Below, piece by piece: positions 19,224 to 43,891 of a stretch of 64,000 nt of DNA. The notes below the pieces were generated by a model. The model saw only the letters and a list, made by a program, of their open reading frames with translations. It was not told the DNA's origin and ran no database searches. How positions within the stretch are numbered: the first letter of the stretch is position 1; every line of letters begins with the position of its first letter. The stretch comes from a phage. Location: NCBI GenBank assembly GCA_025823825.1, contig GCA_025823825.1_4720.1; one strand, 5' to 3'. The translations under genes were made by a program, and so were the position numbers.

Positions 19224-19238
19224 GTTCGATTCCCCTTA

Positions 19239-19682: not shown

Positions 19683-19712
19683 GGTAGGTTCCTCTTGATA
19701 GATGGTAGTAAC

Positions 19713-19732
19713 GGGGATACCGCGGTATCCCC
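19713..19732. promoter_or_regulatory. perfect 20-nt palindrome GGGGATACCGCGGTATCCCC
   Basis: Lies about 30 nt upstream of the start of 19239..19682; the half-site GGGATACC recurs at 33.06 kb. Confidence 0.5.
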
Positions 19733-19790
19733 TAAGTCTTTATAACACATTCCAAGCCATATTGGATACAGGCTCGTTACGTTCGATGAA

Positions 19791-20192
19791 TCACATCAGT
19801 TGTTCTTTAAGTTGGGTTAACTTATTCGCAACGATGGTCTCAACATCGATGATCTTGTTCATGTTGTCGAGGGTATCCTGCCAGATGAAAATATCCACAG
19901 AACGGGTTCCGGCTAACCCGTTCTCAGGACGATGGTCGCGGGTCACGTAGCGTGGTCTCTGCGGGCAGGTTTGTAACTCGATCCAAAGCGCATCTAACGG
20001 ACCACGGTCCGTGACACCTAAGGCGAAGAATTCACCTCGTACGACCAGAACATCATCAGCCGTCCTGACACGGGTTGATCCTTCGTACACCAATTCCATC
20101 TTTGCTCGGCAGGCTGGGTTCTCGTTCCACGCCTGGACGGCATCGGCAAGGGCTATTGACGTTGCGGTGGTGTTCGTTTGATCATGTTGCAT
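19791..20192 (-). CDS. hypothetical protein (133 aa)
   Basis: Track ORF. Confidence 0.5.
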   Translation of the reverse strand: MQHDQTNTTATSIALADAVQAWNENPACRAKMELVYEGSTRVRTADDVLVVRGEFFALGVTDRGPLDALWIELQTCPQRPRYVTRDHRPENGLAGTRSVDIFIWQDTLDNMNKIIDVETIVANKLTQLKEQLM

Positions 20193-20269
20193 TCTAAGCT
20201 CCTGTAACGCTCTCTAAGCGTCGTTTTAAGTTAAGGTATAGTTTCCCTTCTTTGGATTCGTTTATTGCG

Positions 20270-20545
20270 TTATACGGCTTTTCTGTGCGCGTAGAACGCC
20301 TTCGTTCCGTTGTTGATTGCTTCAACCACATCCCGGGTTAACACAACGGCGTTATCGCTTCGAGACGACGGTGCGTAATACCCTTCACCGTTCTCGGTAA
20401 TCAGGCGATAACGGACTAAGCCTATGCTCGGTTCAACACGTAGCACCTTTTCAAGTTTGTATTTGATGATCTTCGTCAGGCTGACTGTGTCTGACGCGTA
20501 GATTGCTTTATAAACCTTGTTCTTTGCTGTCGGTTTCATCAACAT
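20270..20545 (-). CDS. hypothetical protein (91 aa)
   Basis: Track ORF. Confidence 0.45.
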   Translation of the reverse strand: MLMKPTAKNKVYKAIYASDTVSLTKIIKYKLEKVLRVEPSIGLVRYRLITENGEGYYAPSSRSDNAVVLTRDVVEAINNGTKAFYAHRKAV

Positions 20546-20585
20546 GATTTCTGTTGTACTTTCCTTTTCGCTTGTTGGTGTTGGA

Positions 20586-20885
20586 TTAAGGTTTAGGTTC
20601 CGTTTTGTGTTGTGTGAGTAGTGTGTTGATCTGCTCCCGTTGTTCTTTTAAGTATGCGGGAAGCTGGTCTTCCCATACCGTTCCGATTTCCAACGTGATG
20701 TACCAGCGTTGTTCGGAAGCCAGCCATTGAAAACCGCTCTGTAAACGAAGGATGCTAGGATCACGTACCTTGCTTGCGCTGTAACGGTTGAACCAATCCA
20801 GGTATTCTGCTTTCCCTTCATCGTCGGCAACGTAACGCTGCACGCTGTTCTTCCCTTTGTTCTCGTATCCCGTTGCACGTATCAT
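20586..20885 (-). CDS. hypothetical protein (about 100 aa)
   Basis: Track ORF 20586..20939; the internal ATG at 20885 gives an ATGA overlap with the upstream stop; start choice is uncertain. Confidence 0.45.
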   Translation of the reverse strand: MIRATGYENKGKNSVQRYVADDEGKAEYLDWFNRYSASKVRDPSILRLQSGFQWLASEQRWYITLEIGTVWEDQLPAYLKEQREQINTLLTQHKTEPKP

Positions 20886-21664
20886 GCGAGCGTTGCTCCC
20901 GTATCGTGTTGCGTATGGCGTAGCATGGTAGCATCCCATTGTACGATCCGGCTCCGGCTTACCCGCATCATGATGGATTCGTCATCAAGCCCTGGTTGCA
21001 CAACCGGCAACCAACGTTCGTTAAGCACCTTCGCTTCAACGCGTTTCTTGCGGGGATTGTAACGCACCTCGCTAACCCAAGCGAATCCAAGTGGATGCAC
21101 AACCCGTGGATAATACATGCGGAGCAATTGATGCATCCGATCTGTCACCTCCAGGTTAACATCCACCATGTAAGGTTTCACCATGGTAAGCTTTTTGGTG
21201 TAATACGTTCCAACGGTATGGTTACGCCAGCATGGCAAGGCATGATCCCCTTCTCTCAGTTTGCTATCCGGGTTCATCGGCCAGAACTGCTGTTCACCGC
21301 CCAGCATCGCGTGCCGCCGATCAACGCAACGAACCTGATCGGCGAACAATGGATCCAGGATATCATCCACCGCGCCCTTATTGCGATAACCGTGATGTAC
21401 CACCAACCTGCTTGCGCTCATCCGTTGCGGATGCTGGCTCTTATGCGCATACAGTCCTCCATCACCGCGCGTGTCGTAAAGATAGCCGCATGCGCCACGC
21501 CATATCACCTTGCCTACGGTTCTCTCGTTTTCAAGCAGCATCGTCGGCCCATCAAGCAAATTGGTGAACCACTGCACCTTCACGCATTCCGCTTGGACAT
21601 GCTCAGGTAATGCCTGATACTCTTTTTGGGTGTATAAGGTATCAAAAATGATTTCATCGTTCAT
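20882..21664 (-). CDS. hypothetical protein (260 aa), first gene of the operon
   Basis: AGAGGA about 10 nt upstream of ATG; the promoter-like motif lies about 100 nt upstream. A 223-aa antisense ORF on the plus strand was rejected. Confidence 0.55.
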   Translation of the reverse strand: MNDEIIFDTLYTQKEYQALPEHVQAECVKVQWFTNLLDGPTMLLENERTVGKVIWRGACGYLYDTRGDGGLYAHKSQHPQRMSASRLVVHHGYRNKGAVDDILDPLFADQVRCVDRRHAMLGGEQQFWPMNPDSKLREGDHALPCWRNHTVGTYYTKKLTMVKPYMVDVNLEVTDRMHQLLRMYYPRVVHPLGFAWVSEVRYNPRKKRVEAKVLNERWLPVVQPGLDDESIMMRVSRSRIVQWDATMLRHTQHDTGATLA

Positions 21665-21754
21665 TTAAAAGATCCTCTGTTTTTCACGTTAATTAAACAA
21701 CGTATTGATTTCTATTCGATAGCAATACGAACATCGTACGTATGCATCATGAAG

Positions 21755-21771
21755 GTAATATAGCCGTGAAA
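21755..21771 (-). promoter_or_regulatory. promoter-like motif, copy 2 (TATATTAC core)
   Basis: Minus-strand reading TTTCACGGCTATATTACCTTCATGA; identical 17-nt core to copy 1. Confidence 0.55.
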
Positions 21772-22464
21772 GGATTTGTGTTACAGAAGGGTTTTGTTGT
21801 TTTTAAGAAGGGATGGATTTAGAAGAGGTGTTTCAAGGAAGGTAAACGAGGATAGGTATTTTGATTTAAGTAAGTAAGATGTTATCTGTATTTGTTAAAA
21901 GTGTATTGTTTATCTTAGGTTATGTCTTATTGTTTAATCGTTTAATATTTTTATCTACGTAGGTTTAACTCTATCTTGTTTGTATATTTAAATTAATTTA
22001 AAAGTAAGTCAATAAGCGTATCTTCAAAACAATGGATAACATGTGTTTACTACCTTAACGGTAACACATGTCATCTGTGCATTACACTCCGTTACATGCT
22101 GGTTAAATCGGATAACTCAAAAAAACATTTGTGATACTCTTCTTCACGTTGTTCATCAGAGTATCTCGTCTATACTCATTGCATTCGTATACGACATAAC
22201 CGTTATACGCTAACGCTACGCTTATAGCTTGATAACTCTAAGGATAAAAACATAAACTCGCTTCGCTCGTTTAGTTTTTCTTTTTCTTAGAGTTATCCTG
22301 TTGCTCGTCTCTAAAGGACTTCGCTCCTCCCCCGTCCCCCGAAGGGGCCGAGGTCGTGGAAATTTTACTTTCCAAATACATTTACAACATCTGTAAACTT
22401 TTACTCCAGGTACTTAATCTTATCATTAGAAATTATAAAAGAGAAGAATAAACATAAACATAAA

Positions 22465-22496
22465 CCTTCCTCCAACCCAGCAGGGAAGGAGGAAGG
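22465..22496. terminator. conserved CCTCC/GGAGG hairpin element (family member 4)
   Basis: CCTTCCTCC-AACCC-AGCA-GGGAA-GGAGGAAGG, 12 nt downstream of the stop of 22508..23401; CATAAACATAAA on the 5' flank. Confidence 0.6.
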
Positions 22497-22507
22497 GAGA
22501 GATTAAA

Positions 22508-23401
22508 TTATTCGGAAACGTTATAGCCGAATACTGCTTTACCGTAGGTGTGGGTACCGTCAGCTAACGACACCACTAACACATTGCTGTACGTAGCGTT
22601 AACACCATTGTCGGTAGAACTGGTGGTAGCACCGTTATAGACAAAGGTAGCTGTTTGCAGATTGGTTTTCAGTTCATTGATGATATCATCACTTACGCCG
22701 GTCTGCTCTTTGATCAGGGTGGTCAGGTTACCTGCTAAGCTTGCATCGATCTTGGTGTCGTTACTGGTAATAGCTTGTAAACCTGCAGTGTAGGTGCTGA
22801 AGTCTAACGGATAGGTTAACAGACGCGCTGAGGTCTTGGTACCATCGCCTTCATCAACGTAGGTTAAGTTACCCAGGTTGGTAACCTCGATGATGTTAGC
22901 CAGATCCAGCGTGGTGTTATAAACTTTAACTTGAACAGAGCCATACCACGCCAACGAATCTTCTTTGGCTTCCAGGGTGATCGTCTGGATACCAGACTGA
23001 TCGAAGGTAACCGGAGTAGCTAACGTTTCGGCTTTGATGTCTTTCGCTTTATCCAGGAACTTCTCACCGGAAGGCGTGATCATACCGTAGCGTTGAGCTA
23101 CAAGGTCAACCACATCACCGATGGTGGTGTTCGCCTCAACGTTAACACGTACGGCGATCTTCTGGAACCACTTAGCCAGATCCAGACGATGGTAGGTAAC
23201 ATCGCGGTTATTGAAGTAAGGGGTACCTTCACCAGGACTAAGTGTTAAAGTTGCTTCTGGAGCAGAAGGATTCTTTTCTTTAAGGACGTATTTAAGGTCG
23301 GTATATTTAAAGCTGGCACCAGTGTCAGCGTTAAGCTGGTTGATCTCATCAACGATAAGTTGCCAAGGTGTTTTTAAAGTAAGCGATACTTGAGCAGTCA
23401 T
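22508..23401 (-). CDS. abundant Thr/Ser/Asn-rich protein, probably structural (297 aa)
   Basis: Track ORF 22508..23677 trimmed to the ATG at 23401 (GAGGAAG upstream); codon usage is biased toward E. coli-preferred codons. Confidence 0.6.
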   Translation of the reverse strand: MTAQVSLTLKTPWQLIVDEINQLNADTGASFKYTDLKYVLKEKNPSAPEATLTLSPGEGTPYFNNRDVTYHRLDLAKWFQKIAVRVNVEANTTIGDVVDLVAQRYGMITPSGEKFLDKAKDIKAETLATPVTFDQSGIQTITLEAKEDSLAWYGSVQVKVYNTTLDLANIIEVTNLGNLTYVDEGDGTKTSARLLTYPLDFSTYTAGLQAITSNDTKIDASLAGNLTTLIKEQTGVSDDIINELKTNLQTATFVYNGATTSSTDNGVNATYSNVLVVSLADGTHTYGKAVFGYNVSE

Positions 23402-23540
23402 TTTCTTCCTCGATAGTTGGTACATCACTCTCAAAAGATGTAAGTGTTTACAGAAATTAATATATTTTATATTAAATGTGAATATTATGGAGAACGACTC
23501 CGAATCTCCTTTTCGACCATCAAAATCAGAGGACACGAAC

Positions 23541-24086
23541 ATGTCTACTTTAGACTTTAACAAAGCAGCGAAATCCCTTCTGCTTGATCTTATTAACACC
23601 AAAGCGACCCGCACATTGGCTGAAGAAGAACTGCAGTTCGGTACTCCGCAGGAATCTTCCGAACATGAAAAGAACACCGTTATTCAGCTGGACGCGGCGG
23701 CTGAAGCAGCTAACCTGCAGGGTACTCAGCAGTTCTACTACGATCGTCTGGCTCTGTCTGACGTTTTCGCTGATGTAACTGGTGATGTTACTTTCGAACT
23801 GCCGCACGGTACTGACAGCATTCAGGCTTCTGAGCTGGTAAGCAAGCTGGTCACCAAATTCGGTCTGGCTTCCCTGAATGGTGAAATCAGAGAAGAAACC
23901 TTCCAGCTGTCTGCCGGTACTGTTGGTGAGGTAATTCTGAATGCGATCGAGGGTGGCCTGGTATACACTGGTACTCTGCGAGTTGCCCTGACCTACGCAC
24001 TGGCACCAAAAGACGAACTGGCAACCGTTCTGGCGAATAACGTAGCTGAAGGTTTCGAGAAACCGACCGTTAGCGTTGTTGGCTAA
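23541..24086 (+). CDS. abundant small protein, probably structural (181 aa)
   Basis: ATG with AGAGGA 8 nt upstream; very strong codon bias (CTG, GGT, CGT, ACC, CCG); the antisense ORF 23550..24095 was rejected. Confidence 0.65.
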   Translation: MSTLDFNKAAKSLLLDLINTKATRTLAEEELQFGTPQESSEHEKNTVIQLDAAAEAANLQGTQQFYYDRLALSDVFADVTGDVTFELPHGTDSIQASELVSKLVTKFGLASLNGEIREETFQLSAGTVGEVILNAIEGGLVYTGTLRVALTYALAPKDELATVLANNVAEGFEKPTVSVVG

Positions 24087-24284
24087 TAAGCACATAGAGC
24101 AATAGTATGGGTTTTGTACAGCTCGGCTATTGATCTTCTACAATTTGGTTGTAACAATCTGCGTGGTTGCACGCTTATCTTTCTCATTGAACGCTTCGTA
24201 TGAAGCGTGGTGTTGAAAGGGTTGTGGATCTCCTCAAGCGGCCAGGGACCCAGACCAACCTGAATAAACACAAACACATGTTAA

Positions 24285-24318
24285 GCCCCTCCTCATCCGT
24301 TATTGGGTGGGGAGGGGT
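24285..24318. terminator. GC-rich hairpin between convergent genes (divergent family member)
   Basis: GCCCCTCC ... GGAGGGGT around a longer loop. Confidence 0.4.
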
Positions 24319-24380
24319 CTTATACGTCTTTATGCGTTCCGTTCGTTCTGGATCGTTTTAGGACGGTTTATGATGGTGTT

Positions 24381-25016
24381 TTACTCAACACTGAACCCGT
24401 TCAAGATGATCGCTTCATAACGCTTACGTTCACGACGTTTGCGTGCCTGCCAACCGTAGATGAATTTCTCATCTTTCTCACGACGTTCCGCTAATTCGAT
24501 GTAATAGGTGCTCTGCATATCCAGCATCGCGTCGATGAGATAATCCTTACCGGTTGCACCACGCTTAGCGATGTAAGCATCAAGAGCTGCCAGTGATTTG
24601 GGACCCATTGCACCATCAGCATCAATATCTTTCCAGTAAGTTTGACGGTTGTTCATGACGTTCAGGTAACGCTGGAGGTTCTTAACTGCGACTGATTTGC
24701 CTGCGTTGATACCCAGGTCAAAGAGACGGTCAGCTAAAAACACAGAACGTTTCATGACTTCATCAAGCTTCATCTTATCCCAGAAGTGGGTCTTGTAGAT
24801 AAAGAACGCCATTTCCGTGGTAAGGTTACGCATGTTACCGTTCCAGCCGAATTTCGTTTTCAGTGTGGTTTTGTATTGATTGGCAAGCGCTTGCGTAATG
24901 CCGTGGTTTGTGATTCCGCCCGAATCATCGGGATCGTCGACGTAACCTGCTTCGATGCTGGTTTTGTCGCGAATGATAAATTCGCACGTAAAATCTTTTT
25001 CAGTAATCTTAGCCAT
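24381..25016 (-). CDS. endolysin, GH108-type muramidase with probable peptidoglycan-binding domain
   Basis: N-terminal ...EAGYVDDPDDSGGITNHGIT... matches the GH108 signature; no signal peptide. Confidence 0.75.
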   Translation of the reverse strand: MAKITEKDFTCEFIIRDKTSIEAGYVDDPDDSGGITNHGITQALANQYKTTLKTKFGWNGNMRNLTTEMAFFIYKTHFWDKMKLDEVMKRSVFLADRLFDLGINAGKSVAVKNLQRYLNVMNNRQTYWKDIDADGAMGPKSLAALDAYIAKRGATGKDYLIDAMLDMQSTYYIELAERREKDEKFIYGWQARKRRERKRYEAIILNGFSVE

Positions 25017-25059
25017 TAGAACTCCTCGTTGGAATAACGATTTAGAGGAATAGGAAGGG

Positions 25060-25132
25060 TCTAGAACGCGATAAACGATTTAATCCAGGCAAACCCCAGG
25101 TTAAACTTTTCTAAGCGTTAGAACGCGTTCTA
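25060..25132. promoter_or_regulatory. repeated half-site TAGAACGCG, including palindrome TAGAACGCGTTCTA
   Basis: One direct copy at about 25060-25070 and a perfect 14-nt palindrome at 25119-25132, upstream of the endolysin start. Confidence 0.45.
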
Positions 25133-25142
25133 GAGCGCAATA

Positions 25143-27191
25143 TCAAATACCTTTGGTTCCCTTCACGTGATGTGCGATTTCTTCAACCATTGCACGCAGA
25201 GCACGAAGCTGTTGGTCGTGTTCGTACCAACCGCCTAACAGAACCCCGCTATACACCATGGTGTCAAGACTTAACAGTCCTTTATCTGATACGTTGATCA
25301 TTTCAGGGAACTGTTCTTGAACACGCTGTGCGATAACACCGATCTTCTCTACATCAGGATCGTAGTTGTGGCGGAAACGGGCAAGCCCGCTGCGCGCCAT
25401 TTCGCGTAAACGCTCACTAAGAGACTCTGGGTGGTCTTTCAGATAACGGATGTCGTGTTTACTGCGCTCATCCGAGCGAATGTATGCGTTAGGAACATCG
25501 ATGTTGCTGTTGAAGTACAACGCACTACCACCACCTGCAGAGTTCCCCCAATAGAAGCGTGTGATCTCACCGCCGCCATTCTCCGTGATGATGACATGTT
25601 TACCTAAACGCGTACCACCATTACCATCAACGAAGACCAGTTTGTTTCCGCTGTAAGAACCCCAGAACAAGCGTGTATCGATGATGTGTGTTGCAGCGAG
25701 ACGGGCGTTACGTGGTGTAGAATACACGGTGTTAACATCTTGCTGTGCATGCGCATCGGAAGCGATACCGTAGTTCTGTACGTTACCTAACCCAACCTGC
25801 GCTTTCGTAACAGCATGAGGGTTATCCCGACGGTTAGCGTGAGCGTTAACCAGATCGCCCGCTAATTTCTGAATTGCCCAGTTGGTAGACTGTGGTGTCA
25901 TGTAACGGTTAGTTGCAGAACCACCTTGCGCTTCAGCTTGGTTAGCGGTTGGGTAGTTCTCAACACTTCCTAACCCTACTTGTGCTTTAGACACTTGGTG
26001 TGGGTTATTCTTGTCAGCGATGTGTGCATTAAGCGGAACTAACGCAAAGGTCTCAATGGACGCTTTGGTTGTGTTCGGTGCCATTAATCGGTTAGCTGCA
26101 ACACCGGCACGCGCTTCTTCTTCAGAAGCCATTGGGTAGTCTTGCACATTCCCCAACCCAACCTGCGCTTTGGTTACCCTGTGTGGGTTGTTGTAATCGG
26201 CTTTATGCGCATTAAGTGGGATCAATGCGAACTGTTCAATCGCTGCAGCGGTGCGTAGCGGCGTCATGAAACGGTTGTTCGCTGTTCCGGCTTTCGCCTC
26301 ATCATCCGAAGCGGTCGGGAAGTTATCAACGTTCCCAAGGTTAACCTGCGCTTTCGTAACAGCATGAGGGTTATCCCGACGGTTAGCATGCGCGTCGACT
26401 AGATCGCCTGCCAGTTTAGCAATCGCCCATCCAACCGTCTGTGCCGTCATGTAACGGTCAGGTGCAGTACCGGCTTCTGCCTCCGCCTTGTTTGCGGTAG
26501 GATAGTTCTGTACGTTACCTAGTCCGACTTGGGCTTTTGTTACTTCGTGCGGGTTATCGGTACGGTTAGCGTGAGCGTAATGCAGATCGGTCAGATCTTT
26601 ATCCGCCGCTTGCATGTCTTTGCGTAGCTGATCGATTGCCGCCCAGAGACGGTTATCGGACGCAGCATCACCGATAAGTATTGCGGCCTTCAGTGAGTAG
26701 ATCGCTAAGCAAAGATGTTCGGTACCGTAAATAGCACTAACGTGGTGGATGTGTGGTTCAGGCGGATAGAGTTCCGGTTTGTTCTTGATGTCGTCCCAGT
26801 TGATCGGACGATCGTCAAGTTTGAGTTCTTCGATAGCCTGATATAACGCGTCAATAAGACTTACGTAAACACCACCGATGATACGATAGTCGTTAATTAA
26901 CGTCCCCTCGATATCATCGTTGATGATGGCGATCGCCGCACAGATTTCTTTACCTGCGTAAAGCGTCGCATCCTGATACAAGAAGATGGGTTTATAATCC
27001 ACGCCTCGTACCAGTGTCTTACCGGTAAGCTTTTCAGTGATGACCAGACTTTCGGTAAAGAACGGTCCGCCATCAAGGGCGTAACATTTATTCTCGGTTC
27101 GTGGAACGGTATGCTCTTCACCAACGATGTGGTTGCTGGCGAGTGTACCGGTCCAGTCCTCGGGGTACTTCAGGGTAATTGGTGTCGACAT
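25143..27191 (-). CDS. tail fibre protein with repeat array and C-terminal intramolecular chaperone domain
   Basis: Five repeats of about 55 aa, each with NPH.VTKAQVGLGNV.N[YF]P.A...EA.AGT; C-terminal ...SDERSKHDIRYL... resembles the autoproteolytic chaperone domain (peptidase S74-like) of tail fibres and spikes. Confidence 0.75.
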   Translation of the reverse strand: MSTPITLKYPEDWTGTLASNHIVGEEHTVPRTENKCYALDGGPFFTESLVITEKLTGKTLVRGVDYKPIFLYQDATLYAGKEICAAIAIINDDIEGTLINDYRIIGGVYVSLIDALYQAIEELKLDDRPINWDDIKNKPELYPPEPHIHHVSAIYGTEHLCLAIYSLKAAILIGDAASDNRLWAAIDQLRKDMQAADKDLTDLHYAHANRTDNPHEVTKAQVGLGNVQNYPTANKAEAEAGTAPDRYMTAQTVGWAIAKLAGDLVDAHANRRDNPHAVTKAQVNLGNVDNFPTASDDEAKAGTANNRFMTPLRTAAAIEQFALIPLNAHKADYNNPHRVTKAQVGLGNVQDYPMASEEEARAGVAANRLMAPNTTKASIETFALVPLNAHIADKNNPHQVSKAQVGLGSVENYPTANQAEAQGGSATNRYMTPQSTNWAIQKLAGDLVNAHANRRDNPHAVTKAQVGLGNVQNYGIASDAHAQQDVNTVYSTPRNARLAATHIIDTRLFWGSYSGNKLVFVDGNGGTRLGKHVIITENGGGEITRFYWGNSAGGGSALYFNSNIDVPNAYIRSDERSKHDIRYLKDHPESLSERLREMARSGLARFRHNYDPDVEKIGVIAQRVQEQFPEMINVSDKGLLSLDTMVYSGVLLGGWYEHDQQLRALRAMVEEIAHHVKGTKGI

Positions 27192-27204
27192 AACCTGGAG
27201 GTCC

Positions 27205-29802
27205 TTATAACGTGACTGTACCTAATTTGGTTGTCTTATTGAGATTAATGACAGAGATCTGGGTATCGCTGGTCGTAATCGTTCCGATATTAACGCGCTG
27301 TCCTTTATCATCTTCTTGCTTGTAGATGGTTAACTCCAGTTCTAACTGGTCGCCATTAGGAACAACGGAAACGTACCATGTTTTATTACCTGGTGAACTA
27401 TTATAGTCTTTTAGGTTATAATGGCCTTTAGGTAAGGTCATGGCCTTACCGGCAAACAAACATGAAATGTCCTCGTTGATATAAACGTCGAAACCGGAAG
27501 AAGCGATGACTGTTGAGGCCATTATTCGAGACGCGACGATACCACGATTATAGTCGTCGATTGTGGTACCTATGACATTGAATACTTGCCCCCCGTTACC
27601 CATAATGGTCGATTCGCTAGTGTTTACGTAGCCGATACCCCAAGTCGGATGAATGTTCCAGCGGTACCCACTGTTTTGTAAATACGTATACAAGTCTTCA
27701 TAGGCCGCATTCACCCAACTACCATCACTTTTTCGTCCAGCCCTAAATTGGAATGTGTTGCTATTTCCAGATGTTCCTCGGCCAAGAGGGACATGTCCCG
27801 CCACCAACCAACCATCTGTACTTTGCATATACGCGAACGAACCGTACGCTCTGTTATCGGCCCAAATATTCACGGTATCAACACGTTCAACGTAGGCGAT
27901 CACCTTTTGTACGCCGGTTATAGCGATTGAACCCTTGCGTGCCGACACATTAACTTCAGCAATTACGACACCCATTTTCCGCTGGCTGCTGTTAAATCCC
28001 AATACGACCATTAAACACGGTGCGTTTGTTGTTTCTGGAGGAATCGTTATCGATTGTTTCCAGTCGGTGATTCCGCTGAGTTTCGTTCCAGTATATGCGT
28101 TCCAGACGGTTTGTCCAGCCGATTTCAGATTCTGTTCAGAAATAGAAATGGCCTCGCCCTCAGGGATTAACGTGTCGTAATTGAGACCAATGTTGCTGGA
28201 TAGACGAAGGTCGTTTAAGTAAGATCCGCTGAGTGTGACGTTACCGTTACGATAAATTGTCAAGAATGGCGCAGCCAGGGAGTTTAATACCGTAAAGTTA
28301 CTCGATGGCATGAAACCATAGACATCGATGCCATTACCGTGGTAATGGTAGTTTGTCCAACTACCTTGATAACTTACGGTACGTGCATCGTAGTGGCCTT
28401 GTCCAAGACCGCTGCTGGATAACGTGTATATCTTGGTTGCTGATAGAAATGCGAGATATCCATGCGCTGCCAGAGCTCCAACTACCCTGTCTTTTATCTT
28501 TAACCAAGCTGAAGTATATAACGTACTGTCGGGATTCATTTTGGCTATTTCATCGTAAGCCGTGCCTGCGAAGTTTCCGATAGTGTACGTACGTATATCC
28601 GGCTGTCCGTTATTGTCGTTTTGTACAGCAATTACTTGCCCAGAATCATTGATATCGATATTACCGATACAGTTGTGAGCCCCCCACACCCAATATCCAT
28701 CTTTATAATTGGATTCTCCTTGTGTAAATGTCGACGGTCCTCGCCACGCGATGCCGTTCGATTCGGCGTAGTATGTAGCTTGTCCCGATCCTGGATTCAT
28801 GGCGTATCTGTTATTGGTCGGGTCAAAATCGATGTAAAAATGATGCATTCCTTGACGTTGACGGTTGTCCCGATCATTTGTCCACCACGACGAACCGACC
28901 AGAATTCGCGCTTTACCATTTTTTACAGTGGACCATAAACGTATTGCGGCGCGCCAGACGATTTGACCGATCCCGTTGGACGGGAAACTATTCGCACTGA
29001 TGCTGTTGCAGACAACGAGCTCGCTGCTGTTGTTTATTTGAGTCCCTTCAATTGTAACGCCGTTTATGTTAGTAATCAGTGTTGCCGATACGCTACCCCC
29101 TGTAGGGGCGATAGAGGAACGTTGAACGGTGTAAATTTTTAGTGATAATTTATAGCCGCTCCGAATAGCTATACCAATGTAAATAGTTCCGTTAATTTCC
29201 CAACAACAAACATCGGGCATTGTTTCTTTGAAATCGGATAAAGCACCGTCGATATACATCGCAACGTGTTTGCTGGCGTCGAATGTGCCGTCCGTTAACG
29301 CGATGAACATTTTGGCATTATTACCGTTGATATCAGCCGCTAATCCGAGTAGTATGTTGTTCTGATGACAGTAAATGGCTTTAGGCGCTAGATCCAACAT
29401 AGCTGGTTGGTACTGTCGGCTTGTTGGTATTACGCTAGTAACTGCGCCATTTTGATCCGTTTTACAAATAACGTAATATACACCGTGTATGATGCTGTTT
29501 GTCGCTGACCTCAGTAGGACGATCGTCCCGTCAGATTCACGACATATACCGTAATGGCGATAGTCGGTGATTAAACCGATAGCGCCATCGGCCGAACCTT
29601 CGATTGCCAGAGGAAAATAACTTTGGTCCCCAACCTGTTCGATATCGGTTACGCCAATATCGATGTATTTTTCCATCTCGGTGTTGAACTCAGCGGTACT
29701 GTAGGCACCGAGATCGCTCGCCTTTAGTCCCGTTGGGTTGTCACGACTGGCGATACGTGTAGTAACGCTACTCACCAGTTCGCTGAACTTTTTCATTGCC
29801 AT
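27205..29802 (-). CDS. large tail fibre or tail spike candidate (865 aa)
   Basis: Sits in the tail-fibre block; N-terminal ...RDNPTGLKASDLGAY... is related to the NP..VT.AQ motif of neighbouring fibre genes. Confidence 0.45.
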   Translation of the reverse strand: MAMKKFSELVSSVTTRIASRDNPTGLKASDLGAYSTAEFNTEMEKYIDIGVTDIEQVGDQSYFPLAIEGSADGAIGLITDYRHYGICRESDGTIVLLRSATNSIIHGVYYVICKTDQNGAVTSVIPTSRQYQPAMLDLAPKAIYCHQNNILLGLAADINGNNAKMFIALTDGTFDASKHVAMYIDGALSDFKETMPDVCCWEINGTIYIGIAIRSGYKLSLKIYTVQRSSIAPTGGSVSATLITNINGVTIEGTQINNSSELVVCNSISANSFPSNGIGQIVWRAAIRLWSTVKNGKARILVGSSWWTNDRDNRQRQGMHHFYIDFDPTNNRYAMNPGSGQATYYAESNGIAWRGPSTFTQGESNYKDGYWVWGAHNCIGNIDINDSGQVIAVQNDNNGQPDIRTYTIGNFAGTAYDEIAKMNPDSTLYTSAWLKIKDRVVGALAAHGYLAFLSATKIYTLSSSGLGQGHYDARTVSYQGSWTNYHYHGNGIDVYGFMPSSNFTVLNSLAAPFLTIYRNGNVTLSGSYLNDLRLSSNIGLNYDTLIPEGEAISISEQNLKSAGQTVWNAYTGTKLSGITDWKQSITIPPETTNAPCLMVVLGFNSSQRKMGVVIAEVNVSARKGSIAITGVQKVIAYVERVDTVNIWADNRAYGSFAYMQSTDGWLVAGHVPLGRGTSGNSNTFQFRAGRKSDGSWVNAAYEDLYTYLQNSGYRWNIHPTWGIGYVNTSESTIMGNGGQVFNVIGTTIDDYNRGIVASRIMASTVIASSGFDVYINEDISCLFAGKAMTLPKGHYNLKDYNSSPGNKTWYVSVVPNGDQLELELTIYKQEDDKGQRVNIGTITTSDTQISVINLNKTTKLGTVTL

Positions 29803-29814
29803 TATTCACCTCGA

Positions 29815-30300
29815 TTAAATAGGCGAGTCGGGTAGCTGACCATCATCGATCTCGATGGTGGCCACCTTACGTGTTGCAGCAAGATGTGATGTACCCTGGA
29901 TTTTGTTCCAGGTGCCGATACGCATGGCGTTTTTGTAGCTGCTATCGCTATCGTTCAGCGTGTAAACAAAACCGCTATCGGTTACGGCAAGATAGATCCA
30001 GCCTACAGACTCACTGATGCCTGACACGTCCAAAGTTGCTGCTGGCACCGTCCCTACCACCGTGTTGTATTCCGCTGTACCTTGACCAATGCTGATCCGT
30101 CCGTTGCTGTAACTGGCTGCTGGAAGCGTTTTATTTCGACTGAAGAAAAGAAACGGAAGGTAACGCTGGGTAACAAGCGGTGCAAGTTTAGGAGCCACTT
30201 CGGTCTTAACGTAGACATCTGTTTGTGCTGGCGTTACCTCGTGAGGGTTCTTTTGGGTAAGATACGTCCCCCATTCAGAAAGCAGTGTTGATAGCTTCAT
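29815..30300 (-). CDS. small tail-fibre-related protein (161 aa)
   Basis: N-terminal ...QKNPHEVTPAQTDVY... shares the fibre repeat motif. Confidence 0.5.
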   Translation of the reverse strand: MKLSTLLSEWGTYLTQKNPHEVTPAQTDVYVKTEVAPKLAPLVTQRYLPFLFFSRNKTLPAASYSNGRISIGQGTAEYNTVVGTVPAATLDVSGISESVGWIYLAVTDSGFVYTLNDSDSSYKNAMRIGTWNKIQGTSHLAATRKVATIEIDDGQLPDSPI

Positions 30301-30304
30301 GCGG

Positions 30305-30820
30305 TTACCCCATGTAACGTTTTTGGCCGAGGATGAAGACTTTGTTAAATACCACCGAAGTGATTCCTGTTGCGTTACAGCTCACCTGCCCGACGCGAAT
30401 TGCTGTTGACGTATCGACCCCAGCACTACTCTGCCAGATCCAATCGATCGATCCGTCTTTCTGACGAATGAAAAGATAACCGGTTTTGTTCGCCCAGTCG
30501 GAAGTAAGTTTTTTGATGTCTAGCGTTCCCTTCGCCAGAATATAGTCGGTACCGGCGATCATGACGGGTATTTCAGGATACGAGATTACCGTACCGCTGG
30601 CAGTAACGTTGCTGATGCGTTCGCTACGAATATCGGTACAGTCACCGAAATACGCTACGGGGAGTATCCCCTTAAGGAGCTTTTTGCCGATTCTCGTATC
30701 GATCGTGTTTTTATCGGGTGCGTCGATTTGCGCTGCGGTGACTTGGTTAGGGTTATCCTTCCTTGCGTACCATGTCGTCATGCGAGCACCCAATTCACTC
30801 ATTTTTGTGCCCATTTTCAC
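30305..30820 (-). CDS. small tail-fibre-related protein (171 aa)
   Basis: N-terminal ...RKDNPNQVTAAQIDAP... shares the fibre repeat motif. Confidence 0.5.
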   Translation of the reverse strand: MKMGTKMSELGARMTTWYARKDNPNQVTAAQIDAPDKNTIDTRIGKKLLKGILPVAYFGDCTDIRSERISNVTASGTVISYPEIPVMIAGTDYILAKGTLDIKKLTSDWANKTGYLFIRQKDGSIDWIWQSSAGVDTSTAIRVGQVSCNATGITSVVFNKVFILGQKRYMG

Positions 30821-30871
30821 ATCCTATCGAAAAATAAAAAGAAGGAAAGGTGGGTAGAACCCACCCATCCG

Positions 30872-33025: not shown

Positions 33026-33056
33026 GATGCGCCCTTTACAAGTTGTTAGTAAGTAT

Positions 33057-33075
33057 GGGATACCCTGGGGTATCC
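33057..33075. promoter_or_regulatory. palindrome GGGATACC-CTG-GGTATCC in divergent intergenic region
   Basis: Between the divergent starts 33025 (-) and 33130 (+); AAATATTACT lies 30 nt upstream of the plus-strand ATG. Confidence 0.45.
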
Positions 33076-33129
33076 TGTGTTAACAGCGGTAAAATATTAC
33101 TGTAACTATAAAATAAGGGGGCCTCTCCC

Positions 33130-34410
33130 ATGTATACATTGGTAAAAACTTACGGGTTACCCGTAGGTTCTGGCACGGCCTGGACAGCGCTTGAGGCGGG
33201 TGAAAGTGTCCTGAGTACGTTGTTCTCAACGTATCAAAAACTCAAGATCCAGGTCCACGAAAGCTATGCTGACCAGCAACAAGTTATTGATCTGTACACA
33301 TTTCAATCCGAGCTTCAAAACAGCAGCGATACGCTCAATGCGTGGTTGAAAGCGAAATCGGATGCGCATACCAACCTTCGTGGACAGCCCGGCGAGCTGT
33401 CGATTAAAACCCACAAGCTTTATTGTCACGACGCTATTACTGTAGGCTTTCTCCCTAAAGTCGGTAATAGTGGCTATCATCCGAGCAACGCGATCCCTGA
33501 GTCGGAACGCACTGATATCCTGTTGACGAAAGCGAATACGAATTACGAAAATATCGGCAAACACTGCTTGTTCACCGTAGGCGGTTATGTTCATCCTCAT
33601 GTTTACGGTAAAGACGTTGGTGTCTATATCCAGGGCGGGTTCAAGACGGCACAGCGCGGCCAAGAAAACGATATCGGCATGATTGATTTTAGCCGTATCG
33701 GGAGTTTGGAAATTCATGCTATCACAGAAGAGATGATTGCTGATTCCACGAAGCTCTTGCCGTATAAGGACGAGATGTATTTACGGCTACCGCGCAAGGT
33801 CGCCGAAGATGAAACCGTCGCGCTGGTGTTCGGGGGATATTTACATCTTCTTGACGATTGTTACACGATCGTTAGCGACACGACGGCGAAAATAAACTGC
33901 ATTAACATGTTTCTCTATGAACGATACTTCCGTTCCCGTAAATACCTTGATCTAACATCTCTTGGTATTCTGTTGAACGAAGAAGACCCACAGTCCGACA
34001 TTGTTGCCAATCGTTTATTGTCCGATAAAGCATTAAAAGCGTGGGTGACGCATCCTTGCAGTTTCTGGGTGTATATCAAAGCAACATCAATTCAGGTTAC
34101 GCAAGAACCTTTACCACGAAGTGGTGTACCAGGACAATATTTCTTAGGTAAGAAACCGGAAGGATTGATTCGAGCCGATCTTGGTGAGTTACCGGCTTAC
34201 GTGCAGACCTATGAAAAACCGTTATGGGTACTTCACTCGCGCTGGGGACTTCGTAAGAATATGTTGTTTGAAAATACGTTGTACAAACATACCCGCGTTA
34301 AGCGACTTAACGATACGCCTTATCTTCACCAGGTTTGGTTGGAAACGCATGCAACGTTGCAGACAGTACACAAGCTCGAATTGATCGATTCCAGTCAGAA
34401 AAACAAATAA
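33130..34410 (+). CDS. hypothetical protein (426 aa)
   Basis: Track ORF; AAGGGGG upstream; the only plus-strand gene in this block. Confidence 0.6.
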   Translation: MYTLVKTYGLPVGSGTAWTALEAGESVLSTLFSTYQKLKIQVHESYADQQQVIDLYTFQSELQNSSDTLNAWLKAKSDAHTNLRGQPGELSIKTHKLYCHDAITVGFLPKVGNSGYHPSNAIPESERTDILLTKANTNYENIGKHCLFTVGGYVHPHVYGKDVGVYIQGGFKTAQRGQENDIGMIDFSRIGSLEIHAITEEMIADSTKLLPYKDEMYLRLPRKVAEDETVALVFGGYLHLLDDCYTIVSDTTAKINCINMFLYERYFRSRKYLDLTSLGILLNEEDPQSDIVANRLLSDKALKAWVTHPCSFWVYIKATSIQVTQEPLPRSGVPGQYFLGKKPEGLIRADLGELPAYVQTYEKPLWVLHSRWGLRKNMLFENTLYKHTRVKRLNDTPYLHQVWLETHATLQTVHKLELIDSSQKNK

Positions 34411-34420
34411 CCAAACATAA

Positions 34421-34452
34421 CCCTCCTCCAACCCATCAGGGAAGGAGGAGGG
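34421..34452. terminator. conserved CCTCC/GGAGG hairpin element (family member 5)
   Basis: CCCTCCTCC-AACCC-ATCA-GGGAA-GGAGGAGGG; flanks CATAA ... AATATG. Confidence 0.65.
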
Positions 34453-34461
34453 AATATGCTG

Positions 34462-35367
34462 TTATGCTACATATAACGTTAGATAACCGTCGATGAGCGT
34501 ATTCATCACACTGAGTTGAAGTACGACAGCTTTACTAACATCCGTACGTACACCAAACGGGAGTGTTTTGAATTGCTCTGGATCGGCTATTACTTTCGCG
34601 TTCTGCAAGTTGAGTGGTCCAGGCATTGACGACAATACCCAGCGATCGTTGACCATAAGGCCGTCGATCTCTTCAGAGAGACCCAATTGCAGTGCGTTCA
34701 TTTCTGCGATTAGTGCCTCCGATTGCGTATCACCTGAGGTTAACGTATACCCATCGGTAAGTGACGCCAGAACACCAGCAGATACGAACCAGTTGTACGA
34801 AACAATAGCGCCTGGGAGTTTACTGCTATCTCGATCGATGATATAATTCAACCCAGCCAACATATTGTTGCGAACGAGGTTGTTGAGGTCGTTATGTCCT
34901 GAAGTTAACTCAACAAGTAATTGACCAACCCATACTTGGTTACCGGGTTTAGGTGTTATCGCAACCTGTATCGGTGACCTGGACTTATCCAGATCCGCGT
35001 CGACAATCTCGGTTTTGTTGAGAAGGATACCGTACGTCGATGCTAAGACAGGTAGGATCTCAGAGACCTTGGTTAATGCATCTAAGGTTTCGATCTCGAT
35101 GGGCCAGTGGTGCTGTCCGCCAGACCAAGTACCCAGTTTACCAAGATCGATGCGGTTATAATAGATGTCGACAGAGTTCACCAGCCCTGAACCAGGTTGG
35201 GGATGCACGGTTAACTTGCTGTTACGCTTGTACCCTGTGCTTTCAGAAGCTTCACCGATAACCAGTTTATCCAGCGTTACGCCTCGAGCATCGAAATCGC
35301 TATGCTTTCGAATCAGCCGAAAGAGGATTTCTTTCGATTCTAACCCCAGGATTTCACTGTACTCCAT
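34462..35367 (-). CDS. paralogous virion-type protein, family member A (301 aa)
   Basis: Shares STYGI, RWVL, NLQNAKV and a C-terminal L..Y motif with 36284..37135 and 37146..38081. Confidence 0.6.
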   Translation of the reverse strand: MEYSEILGLESKEILFRLIRKHSDFDARGVTLDKLVIGEASESTGYKRNSKLTVHPQPGSGLVNSVDIYYNRIDLGKLGTWSGGQHHWPIEIETLDALTKVSEILPVLASTYGILLNKTEIVDADLDKSRSPIQVAITPKPGNQVWVGQLLVELTSGHNDLNNLVRNNMLAGLNYIIDRDSSKLPGAIVSYNWFVSAGVLASLTDGYTLTSGDTQSEALIAEMNALQLGLSEEIDGLMVNDRWVLSSMPGPLNLQNAKVIADPEQFKTLPFGVRTDVSKAVVLQLSVMNTLIDGYLTLYVA

Positions 35368-35382
35368 TTAACACCTCTTAGG

Positions 35383-36267: not shown

Positions 36268-36283
36268 GTCTTTTCCTATTTAA

Positions 36284-37135: not shown

Positions 37136-37145
37136 TGTTTATTCC

Positions 37146-38081
37146 TTAGCCTTGTTCTTCTGGAGAACGACCCTGGAGGCTTGCGGTATGTCCGTCGACG
37201 TTGTAATAGAAAATCAATGGACCGCCAACGGCAGTACAGTAGTTTTCATCCAGACTGATCTCGATACCGTATTGGTAACCTGCTCTTGCTGGAATACGTC
37301 CGCCTAACTCACCGTTGAAAGCCACTTTAGCATTATACAGGTTATACGGTGCGACATTGTCGTCTAATACCCAACGATCGGTAGTCATTTCAGCCAGAAG
37401 ATCGGCAACCACCACATCGCTAATAACTGTACCTGTTACCAGCGAAGCCAGCAGTTCACCGTAATCAGAGGTATCACGACTGTAACTGTAAATCTCACCG
37501 CTAGCGCGTACGCCTTGACCAAAGAACTTAAGACCATCCAGCTCCTTGATCGCGATAATATCATCAAGATTCGGTACACGCGACTTCATCAAGATACGAA
37601 CGCTCCCCGTCCAAGCCAGGCAGTTAGATGCGACACGAAGCAATTGTCCGTTAACAGTATCCCAGTTAAGTTCGTCGTTGACGATTTCTTCCGCGGTAAG
37701 ACCAAGACCGAAACGTTCTTTGATGATAGGCCAGATATCACGCATCTTGGCGGCGTCTGGCGCATCGATAAGAATAGGAGCTACGTTACGCAGATACGCA
37801 CCGATGTTAATACGGTCGTAATACAGTGTCGTCGAACCTTCGTAATCGTCTAACTCGGTAAGCTTAGCGGTTGCTGTCGCCGTAATCTGGGTGTCGCGCT
37901 CATAGGCGCTTTGGTTGGTGGTTGGTGTTCCTAAAACCAATAATTCAGGGGTTAGGATATGCTCTCCGTTCTGAGGTGGGTTATCGTGGTTGATAAGACC
38001 ATACACGAGATCGGATGAGGGTAAAGAGACGTCGACCGGGTAAAGTTCGGTGTCGTCAATAGTTGTTACCGTATCACTCAC
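37146..38081 (-). CDS. paralogous virion-type protein, family member C (311 aa)
   Basis: Motifs ERFGLGL, TDRWVLDDN, NLYNAKV and LDENYCTAVGGPLIFYYN. Confidence 0.6.
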   Translation of the reverse strand: MSDTVTTIDDTELYPVDVSLPSSDLVYGLINHDNPPQNGEHILTPELLVLGTPTTNQSAYERDTQITATATAKLTELDDYEGSTTLYYDRINIGAYLRNVAPILIDAPDAAKMRDIWPIIKERFGLGLTAEEIVNDELNWDTVNGQLLRVASNCLAWTGSVRILMKSRVPNLDDIIAIKELDGLKFFGQGVRASGEIYSYSRDTSDYGELLASLVTGTVISDVVVADLLAEMTTDRWVLDDNVAPYNLYNAKVAFNGELGGRIPARAGYQYGIEISLDENYCTAVGGPLIFYYNVDGHTASLQGRSPEEQG

Positions 38082-38140
38082 GGTGACCTCCTCGCCAGGA
38101 ATTAGATAAAAAAGACTTTACGATTTGCTGCGCTATCACG

Positions 38141-40552: not shown

Positions 40553-40579
40553 GATCGGTCCTCCAAGGAGCCAGTGTAA

Positions 40580-43489: not shown

Positions 43490-43522
43490 ACGGATGTAAA
43501 AAAAAAAATAACACATAGTTAA

Positions 43523-43557
43523 CCTTCTCCCCAACCCGATGAGGGAAGGGGAGAAGG
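43523..43557. terminator. conserved CCTCC/GGAGG hairpin element (family member 6)
   Basis: CCTTCTCCCC-AACCC-GATGA-GGGAA-GGGGAGAAGG, preceded on the plus strand by an A10-12 run; flanks CATAG ... CTATG. Confidence 0.65.
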
Positions 43558-43574
43558 GCTATGCGCTATTTAAT

Positions 43575-43850
43575 TTATTTCGAGGTTAACCACGATTCAA
43601 TTATGGTGAGTTTGCTTCTCAGTACGCGCCAACTAGGGTGTGGTGGGATCACAGCGCCATTGTCGATTACGGTTAGCTGAACCTGGTACTTCTGTTGCAT
43701 ACGCGCTACCGTGTCGCTTATCGAGAGGAAAAGCTGGTAACGTTCATATGCCGTCAGTTCACTGTCCTGTTGAACTGCGTTGGCTGCTAACGTAATTTCG
43801 CGTAAGTCCTTTGCATCCACAGAGACGGTAATGAGTTTATATTGACTCAT
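43575..43850 (-). CDS. hypothetical protein (91 aa)
   Basis: Track ORF. Confidence 0.5.
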   Translation of the reverse strand: MSQYKLITVSVDAKDLREITLAANAVQQDSELTAYERYQLFLSISDTVARMQQKYQVQLTVIDNGAVIPPHPSWRVLRSKLTIIESWLTSK

Positions 43851-43869
43851 ACGGTTTCCTTATCAACTA

Positions 43870-43891
43870 GGGTATTGCAAATACAATACCC
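43870..43891. promoter_or_regulatory. palindrome GGGTATTG-CAAATA-CAATACCC
   Basis: 8-bp perfect stem between genes, about 30 nt upstream of the start at 43850. Confidence 0.4.

Follow-up and report, generated by a model that had tools for sequence, protein, structure and literature searches.

The three palindromes analysed here, which lie in a 64,000-nucleotide stretch of phage DNA (the window), are intergenic, individually conserved stem-loops. The window derives from a Goslar-like jumbo phage of E. coli (Chimalliviridae). We tentatively read the sites, with slightly less than even confidence, as three RNA stem-loops, each specific to its own locus, within leaders or intercistronic spacers, and not as one sequence family or as operators. 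From the sequence we infer the acting molecule (RNA), the strand at site 2 and an effect on RNA stability or processing.

An initial annotation had described recurrent palindromes about 30 nt upstream of gene starts. All three are present where it had placed them, and Table 1 gives the inverted repeat proper of site 2. The stems are GGGGATAC at site 1, GGATACC(C) at site 2 and GGGTATTG at site 3, and all lie upstream of minus-strand start codons, those of the homologues of Goslar gp017, gp029 and gp037. The distance of about 30 nt holds for site 1 (30 nt before the gp017-homologue GTG at 19682) and for site 2 (32 nt from the gp029-homologue ATG at 33025), and fails for site 3 (19 nt before the gp037-homologue ATG at 43850). 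Sites 1 and 3 are in tandem gene arrays, 58 nt past the gp018 stop codon and 20 nt past the gp038 stop codon, respectively. Site 2 lies where gp029 (minus strand, tail-fibre-like) and gp030 (plus strand, a phiKZ gp130 homologue) diverge, in the 104-nt region that separates them, and is 54 nt from the gp030 ATG at 33130. The same region holds a promoter-like element, separated from site 2 by 15 nt and from the gp030 ATG downstream of it by 29 nt; in a distant lineage, L019, the 12-mer at this element is reverse-complemented.

Table 1. Coordinates of the three sites and of associated features in the window.
Feature	Coordinates	Strand	Sequence or remark
Site 1 stem-loop	19713..19732	-	gp018-to-gp017 sense: GGGGAUAC-CGCG-GUAUCCCC
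Site 1, letters as given in the window	19713-19732		GGGGATACCGCGGTATCCCC
Site 2 palindrome/stem-loop	33058..33075	.	GGATACCC-TG-GGGTATCC
Site 2, letters over the interval first annotated	33057-33075		GGGATACCCTGGGGTATCC
Site 3 stem-loop	43870..43891	-	gp038-to-gp037 sense: GGGUAUUG(U)-AUUU-(G)CAAUACCC
Site 3, letters as given in the window	43870-43891		GGGTATTG-CAAATA-CAATACCC
Spacer from site 1 to the gp017 start	19683..19712	-	GTTACTAyCAT...CTATCAAGAGGAACCT, Shine-Dalgarno included
Promoter-like element AAAATATTAC	33091..33100	+	ATATTAC core, the early-promoter core of this phage group
phiKZ-type terminator (example)	6651-6696		
phiKZ-type terminator (example)	10805-10850		
phiKZ-type terminator (example)	34411-34461		
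phiKZ-type terminator (example)	49976-50030		

Comparison with about 20 related genomes (11 close relatives for site 2 and 10 genomes for site 3) showed that the stems are retained while the loops differ in sequence and length. In Goslar itself, sites 1, 2 and 3 correspond to 13016-13033, 26383-26400 and 37193-37214. At site 1, relatives carry either the window type, with a CGCG, UGCG or CGCU loop, or GGGGAC-AUCGCC-GUCCCC; the Goslar stem is GGGGAC/GTCCCC and thus different from that of the window. The alleles have 6-bp and 8-bp stems and loops of differing length, and stem position 6 is C-G in one and U-A in the other. Both share the 3′ flank, that is, the spacer leading to the gp017 start, in which one relative (L091) has single substitutions; the region 5′ of the hairpin is unalignable between them. 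In Goslar-type genomes a separate hairpin of the terminator family precedes site 1, and site 1 is therefore not simply the gp018 terminator. When viral_contigs was scanned for this conserved flank, 46 matches came back, 2 of them in Goslar-type contigs and the other 44 apparently due to chance. One contig, P0063, has inserted genes, and the stretch of it that was examined stopped short of site 1.

Site 2 is identical in the 11 close relatives, an invariance that says little because these genomes are so similar. In lineage L019, where the neighbouring protein is only 72% identical, the site reads GGAUA-C-GCC-AUGUCC-GGC-U-UAUCC: the outer arms GGAUA/UAUCC are kept, the inner stem and loop are replaced, and the arms (GGATA/TATCC in DNA), 8 nt apart in the window, are 14 nt apart. 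At site 3, all eight stem pairs are standard in the 10 genomes, seven being invariant and one changing from UA to UG in the sense RNA, so that 1 of 16 stem columns varies versus 5 of 7 loop columns; a 1-nt insertion makes the loop either 6 or 7 nt long. Kept stems combined with changing loops and arm spacing fit hairpins and do not fit a dimeric operator of fixed geometry.

The stem changes seen are the U-A to U-G change at site 3, the C-G/U-A difference between the site 1 alleles and the remodelled inner stem in L019. Among close relatives, no pair of site 2 or site 3 has undergone a true compensatory double change, and the covariation score is no different from that of the shuffles, giving no statistical support. 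The initial annotation had left the choice between operators for a phage-encoded dimeric regulator and 5′-UTR structures acting on RNA; kept stems, variable loops and wobble-compatible or compensatory changes make the latter the better-supported of the two, and suggest rather than establish it.

In 40-nt contexts the sites, 19-32 nt upstream of the start codons, fold at −11.2 to −16.6 kcal/mol, with z scores of −1.8 to −4.1. Strand asymmetry differs by site. Site 1 (minimum free energy −14.7 kcal/mol) is symmetric; site 2, at −11.2 kcal/mol in the minus sense and −14.3 in the plus, favours the strand opposite to gp029; and site 3 favours the sense RNA (−16.6 kcal/mol, z = −4.1) over the antisense (−11.4), a difference of 5 kcal/mol found both in the window and in one divergent relative. 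The L019 version of site 2 folds at −11.2 kcal/mol (z = −4.05). When contexts of 68-93 nt were folded in the minus sense, sites 1 (z = −0.18) and 2 (z = −0.97) were not significant; site 2 in the plus sense reached −2.0, and site 3 reached −2.4 (minus) and −2.3 (plus). A longer outer helix at site 3, in which some of the Shine-Dalgarno sequence would be hidden, was rejected: it needs a 12-nt segment that is missing in half of the relatives and is therefore not conserved. Rfam at the gathering threshold gave no match across the whole window.

Hairpins are generally abundant between the genes of this phage. The 4,642 nt of intergenic DNA in the window contain 10 perfect hairpins whose stems have 7 bp or more, versus 1.8 ± 1.3 in shuffled sequence (maximum 6 in 300 shuffles), that is, about five times the expectation. 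Hairpin density in the window is 2.15 per kb in intergenic versus 0.74 per kb in coding DNA, and across all of Goslar 2.98 versus 0.55 per kb (about 5-fold). Goslar also has a sizeable class of hairpins that lack a T-tract and lie in short intercistronic gaps, 11-37 nt upstream of start codons.

Counts of the half-site tell a different story from the recurrence first described. GGATACC is common to two sites only, and the sequence of site 3 is unrelated; the half-site shared by sites 1 and 2 is real for the site 1 allele of this genome and is absent in Goslar, whose site 1 stem differs. GGATACC-N0-8-GGTATCC occurs twice in the window and not at all in 100 shuffles. This palindromic half-site pair, with its two sites in the window, has one in the whole Goslar genome (237 kb), where each of the three palindromes is unique. 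The word GGGATACC has 14 copies in Goslar versus 4.0 expected, 13 of the 14 within CDS, and its density is 0.059 per kb in CDS and 0.060 per kb in intergenic DNA. This equal density is the outcome that the initial annotation had named as speaking against its proposal. Outside the two palindromes, the window has two copies of the 8-mer, both in CDS. Nor were GGATAC-type words found among the k-mers enriched upstream of genes, an enrichment that the initial annotation had suggested checking. We found no evidence of a GGGATACC regulon.

If the palindromes were double-stranded DNA operators of one or more dimeric phage regulators, one of them shared by sites 1 and 2 through their GGATACC half-sites, one would expect much of what is seen locally: the inverted repeats are perfect, 7-nt arms are common to sites 1 and 2 and TTACTA is near both, and site 2, in its divergent control region, takes a classic operator position at about −32 to −49 of the promoter-like element. 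Conserved arms around a variable centre are compatible with an operator too, and phiKZ and 201phi2-1 have, in the homologous divergent region, a conserved AT-rich 15-nt palindrome that is weak as an RNA hairpin and more like a DNA site. Nevertheless, operators bound by dimeric phage repressors, which resemble the three sites in being perfect inverted repeats beside gene starts, have fixed half-site spacing and a recurring half-site, and the three sites show neither: among relatives the distance between the arms differs by 6 bp for site 2 and 1 bp for site 3, the arms of Goslar site 1 differ, and each palindrome is unique. Although GGGATACC is over-represented genome-wide, 13 of its 14 copies lie in CDS at the intergenic density, which makes chance sharing the easier explanation. 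Searches of Pfam and PHROGs for HTH or RHH domains gave no match in the homologues of gp016, gp017, gp018, gp019, gp037 and gp038, and autoregulation by the small downstream proteins was rejected on this ground; the genome-wide counts together with the Goslar site 1 allele led us to reject a shared operator or regulon. The operator proposal is thus left unsupported, and we regard it as quite unlikely. A deep homology of the TTGTTAG..TAA..ATG flank between Goslar and phiKZ/201phi2-1 was also considered and dropped; the distant Goslar-like lineage itself retains the flank poorly, and one shared 7-mer is no significant match when two regions of 100 nt are compared. The palindromes of the gp130/gp131-like tail-gene divergent region differ between Goslar-like phages and phiKZ/201phi2-1. 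It is highly improbable that the hairpins, chiefly site 2, are recognition elements for a phage-encoded factor of nucleus-forming phages (an RNA-binding protein or late-gene regulator); if they were, such a factor would control selected virion genes through translation, post-export mRNA handling or the promoter choice of the nvRNAP. The palindromes might also have no dedicated function and owe their presence to chance or hitch-hiking, for example as scars at the boundaries of exchanged modules. Site 1 does lie at the edge of a mosaic segment (the window gp017 is 63% identical to that of Goslar, its neighbours 96-99%), gp037 is variable as well (78-98%), and the uninformative invariance of site 2 leaves room for this account. 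However, hairpin potential is kept across alleles and in the lineage with the 72%-identical neighbour, variation is concentrated in the loops, the stem changes preserve pairing and intergenic hairpins are well above the shuffle expectation, making an absence of function very unlikely.

Transcription offers two further explanations, termination and initiation. The terminator of phiKZ-type chimalliviruses has the consensus 5′-BCCYCCCCHWWDGGGRRGGBYTTATKYYGT-3′ (Putzeys et al. 2024, PMC10914365), and in Goslar 27 of 29 intergenic TATG[CG][CT]G sites are preceded by a GC-rich hairpin. These terminators, of which the window has many, are like the three sites GC-rich intergenic stem-loops of the same phage family, but their CCTCC/GGAGG stems are longer, whereas the sites have other, shorter stems. 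No CCYCC.../...GGRGG stem was found in any of the three, TTATKYYGT is absent directly 3′ of each hairpin in both senses (gene-sense tails GTTACTACC, CATACTTAC and TAGTTGATA; opposite-sense tails TAAGTCTTT, TGTGTTAAC and ACCGTCGGA), and the set of hairpin-plus-TATG[CG][CT]G sites includes none of the three. A hairpin-plus-T scan of both strands, which does call a true terminator at 30848-30866, did not call the three palindromic stems; its sole call nearby is another, weak stem on the minus strand (43908-43888), which shares positions with the 5′ arm of site 3. The missing tail and T-tract thus rule out phiKZ-type and canonical terminators. Weak or conditional tail-less terminators (attenuators) for the phage multisubunit RNA polymerases would be a different matter, with partial termination between the two genes of the gp018/gp017 and gp038/gp037 pairs and, ahead of gp029 or gp030, termination close to the TSS. 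The location of sites 1 and 3 shortly past stop codons in tandem arrays is consistent with this, the tails of sites 1 and 2 (GTTAC.. and CTTAC..) are loosely similar to YTTAT in the phiKZ motif, and in 201phi2-1 only 52 of 132 mapped terminators are predicted to be intrinsic and 8 of 11 small RNAs arise by premature termination in 5′-UTRs (PMC11512511). Even so, besides the lack of the TTATKYYGT tail and of a T-run, the terminator family has longer and stronger stems (−18 to −30 kcal/mol, versus −11 to −17 at the three sites), a dedicated terminator hairpin precedes site 1 in Goslar, and site 2, being in a divergent region, has no upstream cistron; we consider attenuation unlikely. That the hairpins are structural parts of promoters, either a phiKZ-type late TATG(+1) followed by a 5′-terminal hairpin (site 2) or an N4-like hairpin promoter, is hardly probable at all. 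In its favour, TATG immediately precedes site 2 on the plus strand in the window and in Goslar, the major head gene has a small hairpin after an upstream TATG, and the phiKZ late promoter P119L requires the downstream region +1..+51, which lacks sequence conservation (PMC4666361). However, each TATG position is needed in the phiKZ late promoter (PMC4666361), and, in place of the TATG of site 2, 6 of the 11 close relatives have TGTG, 1 has AGTG and L019 has GATG; no conserved TATG accompanies sites 1 and 3. Moreover, the 28 nt after 82 intergenic TATGs of Goslar fold like background (mean −3.05 versus −3.01 kcal/mol), with 8.5% versus 8.3% at or below −8 kcal/mol. A late-promoter TATG with a downstream hairpin was therefore rejected, the TATG not being conserved and having no genome-wide association with hairpins. 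The known hairpin promoters of the N4 type need a single-subunit virion RNAP, and none is annotated in Goslar.

In the reading that we favour, that of locus-specific RNA stem-loops, the hairpins would be transcribed within the untranslated spacer ahead of gp017, gp029 (or gp030) and gp037, and each 8-9 bp, GC-clamped hairpin would serve as RNA punctuation. At sites 1 and 3 it may shield the 3′ end of the upstream cistron from decay by exonucleases or through RNase E; at all three, and at site 2 especially, it may be positioned close to where the downstream message begins. With either placement the hairpin would determine how abundant the flanking cistrons are relative to each other, while the start codon and Shine-Dalgarno sequence, which follow it at 19-32 nt, would remain unpaired. 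The predicted effects are on mRNA stability, processing or read-through.

Hairpins of both kinds have precedents. The E. coli ompA leader and the T7 gene 10 leader carry mRNA-stabilising 5′ hairpins, and REP elements are intercistronic 3′ barriers. Like these, the sites are small and stable hairpins of untranslated spacers, follow a stop codon or precede a cistron, and keep clear of the ribosome-binding site; REP elements, however, are a repeated family, whereas each hairpin here is unique, and its position at an RNA end is putative. Closer to this phage, structured 5′-UTR elements and TSS-proximal termination have been documented in 201phi2-1 and phiKZ (PMC11512511). These elements too are structured, stand in the leaders of virion and tail genes and are conserved in position more than in sequence. 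Unlike the Goslar-like sites, which were recognised in the sequence, they are defined by mapped TSS/TTS pairs; they have no sequence similarity to the sites, and the documented conserved small RNA precedes another tail gene (the phiKZ gp182 family).

Should the RNA stem-loop reading be correct, little would change, as such structures are commonplace in the leaders and intercistronic spacers of phages. The flagged hairpins are nonetheless separable from the conserved class of chimallivirus terminators. A Goslar RNA-seq time course has been published (Armbruster et al., bioRxiv 10.1101/2023.09.20.558163). Several dozen Goslar-like genomes are present in public assemblies, with at least 25 variants of gp037 and at least 60 of gp024, making a proper covariation test possible, and those genomes would support the annotation of regulatory elements for a model phage of the phage nucleus.

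The phage that the DNA comes from is related to vB_EcoM_Goslar (Goslarvirus, Chimalliviridae), an Escherichia jumbo phage that forms a nucleus. The window is collinear with Goslar at 91-97.5% nucleotide identity, Goslar position 1 corresponding to window position 6664. Genes were assigned by projecting the Goslar annotation with tblastn, after which every intergenic region was listed; gp numbers denote homologues of Goslar proteins, and nearly all genes are on the minus strand. The three palindromes picked out in the initial annotation (sites 1-3, by rising coordinate) are present as described. Their reported position upstream of starts also holds: all are intergenic, each 5' of a minus-strand gene. 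They exceed chance. GGATACC-N0-8-GGTATCC occurs twice in the window and in none of 100 shuffles. The 4.6 kb of intergenic window DNA has 10 hairpins whose perfect stem is 7 bp or longer, versus 1.8 +/- 1.3 after shuffling, and hairpins are likewise enriched between genes across the whole of Goslar (2.98/kb intergenic versus 0.55/kb coding).

Features in the window
Feature	Window coordinates	Context
Site 1	19713-19732	between gp018 stop (19791) and gp017 GTG (19682); 30 nt from GTG
Site 2	33058-33075	104-nt divergent region gp029/gp030; 32 nt from gp029 start (33025), 54 nt from gp030 start (33130)
Site 3	43870-43891	between gp038 stop (43912) and gp037 ATG (43850); 19 nt from ATG
GC-rich stem-loop family	2012-2062, 6651-6696, 8489-8543, 10144-10198, 10805-10850, 17880-17930, ~22470-22507, ~24320-24370, 34411-34461, 43520-43574, 49976-50030, 54775-54829, 58650-58704, 63956-64000	
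Canonical intrinsic terminator	30848-30866	
TTTCACGGCTATATTACYTWRGTG motif cores	9221-9227, 21755-21761, 49936-49942, 58609-58615	minus strand
TTCTGAACC-CGT-GGTTCAGAA hairpin	16688-16708	divergent region, 25 nt upstream of gp012 (SbcC-like) start
TAGAACGCGTTCTA palindrome	25119-25132	gp024/gp025 spacer (25017-25142)
TTAATATA-TTT-TATATTAA, AT-only palindrome	23457-23475	divergent gp022/gp023 region
Mosaic segments	11504-12727, 19239-19682, 20882-21664, 27205-29802, 56273-58545	last segment: three additional genes in place of Goslar gp047
Tail-fibre-like paralogues	25143-27191, 30872-33025	gp025, gp029
Gene-free stretch	21665-22507	843 nt
15-A run	6703-6717	

The initial annotation had read the palindromes either as operators for a dimeric phage regulator or as 5'-UTR RNA structures. 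The operator reading is unsupported, since the arms of site 1 differ in Goslar, the half-site is not specific to intergenic DNA and the spacing varies. Site 1 reads GGGGAC-ATCGCC-GTCCCC in several relatives, Goslar among them, still a hairpin in the same place with other arms; palindromic GGATACC..GGTATCC occurs once in Goslar's 237 kb, and none of the three palindromes has a second copy in that genome. The 8-mer GGGATACC, which contains the half-site GGATACC proposed as common to sites 1 and 2, is over-represented in the Goslar genome when counted with its complement: a first-order Markov model predicts 4.0 copies and there are 14 (Poisson P about 8e-5), an excess that may be due to codon or dipeptide bias. 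Thirteen of these copies lie inside genes, and the word is equally dense in coding and intergenic DNA (0.059/kb versus 0.060/kb), the pattern that the initial annotation had named as grounds for refuting its proposal. Given this abundance, mostly in genes, the chance sharing of an arm by two hairpins is unremarkable. GGATAC-type words are absent from the 6-mers enriched upstream of genes, which are Shine-Dalgarno, terminator and early-promoter words, and no recognisable DNA-binding domain was found in the small proteins encoded beside the sites.

Many Goslar-like genomes are present in public assemblies. At site 3, all eight stem pairs are standard in each of 10 genomes, seven being invariant and one switching from U-A to U-G (gene-sense RNA), while 5 of 7 central-loop columns vary, with a 1-nt length change, and the 5' flank has a 12-nt indel. 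Its sense RNA is ~5 kcal/mol more stable than the antisense in both the window and a divergent relative. Site 1 has two alleles with different stems of 6 and 8 bp, which pair C-G and U-A respectively or vice versa at position 6, and the tetraloop of one allele comes in three forms (CGCG, UGCG and CGCU); the 3' flank, GTTACTAyCAT...CTATCAAGAGGAACCT, is kept in all relatives except for single substitutions in one (L091), and the 5' flanks of the alleles are not alignable. Site 2 is identical, and so uninformative, in 11 close relatives. In a distant Goslar-like lineage (L019; neighbouring endolysin 72% identical) it reads GGATA-C-GCC-ATGTCC-GGC-T-TATCC, with the outer arms retained, the inner stem and loop replaced and the arms separated by 14 nt versus 8, and it folds at -11.2 kcal/mol (z = -4.05). 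Such variable loops and arm spacing, with stem changes that preserve pairing, are as expected of a hairpin and not of a dimeric operator of fixed geometry; this evidence is limited, and the compared site sequences yielded no covariation with statistical support.

A DNA-level role stays alive for site 2 as a minority view, because a palindrome occurs in homologous regions and a promoter-like AAAATATTAC lies nearby. The gp030/gp029 pair corresponds to phiKZ gp130/gp131 and 201phi2-1 gp215/gp216, divergent there too, and the intergenic regions of these two phages have in common a conserved 15-nt palindrome, ATGTGAAATTCACAT, so that three genera have a palindrome in this control region, its sequence being lineage-specific. 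ATGTGAAATTCACAT sits within a ~45-nt conserved block shared by the two control regions (L093, phiKZ 134385-134481; L092, 201phi2-1 148125-148216) and corresponds in position to site 2. Site 2 of the window is 15 nt from AAAATATTAC, whose ATATTAC core is that of the group's early-promoter consensus TTTCACGGCTATATTACYTWRGTG and whose upstream part is mismatched. TTTCACGGCTATATTACYTWRGTG is itself conserved (~12 strong copies in Goslar intergenic DNA) and is similar to the AT-rich promoters of the early (virion RNAP) class in phiKZ-like phages. Sigma-70-like promoters showed no enrichment (15 versus 21.6 expected, window 19000-34600). On the plus strand at site 2, in the window and in Goslar alike, TATG directly precedes GGATACC, an arrangement reminiscent of T(-3)ATG(+1), the late promoter of phiKZ, with its unexplained need for downstream sequence (PMC4666361). 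We rejected a late-promoter reading: TATG becomes TGTG, AGTG or GATG in most relatives, and downstream of 82 intergenic Goslar TATGs folding is no better than background.

The abundant terminator of this phage group is a CCYCC/GGRGG stem-loop followed directly by TTATGCYGT, and 27 of the 29 intergenic TATG[CG][CT]G sites in Goslar come right after a GC-rich hairpin. It is the published phiKZ motif, BCCYCCCCHWWDGGGRRGGBYTTATKYYGT (PMC10914365), and the match of the window's stem-loop family to this motif indicates a terminator signal conserved from Pseudomonas to E. coli chimalliviruses. The family (consensus CCTCC..AACCC-loop-GGGAAGG..GGAGG, most then directly (T)TTATGCYGT) lies at convergent and tandem gene ends and is often bidirectional; the tail includes TATG, the phiKZ late-promoter core. 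Sites 1-3 are not of this class, having neither the CCYCC/GGRGG stems nor the TTATKYYGT tail of phiKZ-type terminators. Nor are they canonical intrinsic terminators: their stems go uncalled by a hairpin-plus-T-tract scan that does call the one at 30848-30866. Site 1 is not simply the gp018 terminator, because in Goslar-type genomes a separate terminator-family hairpin intervenes between it and the gp018 stop. Rfam gave no family match across the whole window.

Other palindromes were also seen. TTCTGAACC-CGT-GGTTCAGAA has a near-identical second copy beyond the window (Goslar 60955-60975), downstream of a terminator, and thus truly recurs, unlike sites 1-3. In the gp024/gp025 spacer a further CTAGAACGCG copy lies ~60 nt from TAGAACGCGTTCTA, and to judge from sequence these repeated half-sites look more operator-like than sites 1-3.

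The genome is mosaic: the gp009, gp017, gp021 and gp026 homologues are 62-66% identical to Goslar and their neighbours 96-100%, and site 1 borders one exchanged module. The gp025 and gp029 paralogues, which have internal repeats, are 38-50% identical across several registers. The gene-free stretch has no credible ORF, is conserved as a gap in Goslar (14972-15825) and has no Rfam match; since it holds both a terminator hairpin and an early-promoter motif, very small proteins or a non-coding RNA could be encoded there. The 15-A run is part of the spacer at which the GenBank record of Goslar begins and ends; terminator hairpins lie on either side of it, and the physical genome ends may be close by.

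The best-supported reading of sites 1-3 is three independent RNA stem-loops in leaders or intercistronic spacers, and of the two original proposals the 5'-UTR structure is thus the likelier, with RNA as the presumed level of action; the strand active at site 2 and an effect of the three sites on expression are what we infer. Related chimalliviruses are known to have structured 5'-UTR elements and TSS-proximal termination (PMC11512511). The hairpins, which leave the ribosome-binding sites free, would serve to block decay or to punctuate processing, weak attenuation being a less likely role, and as such are an ordinary kind of feature.
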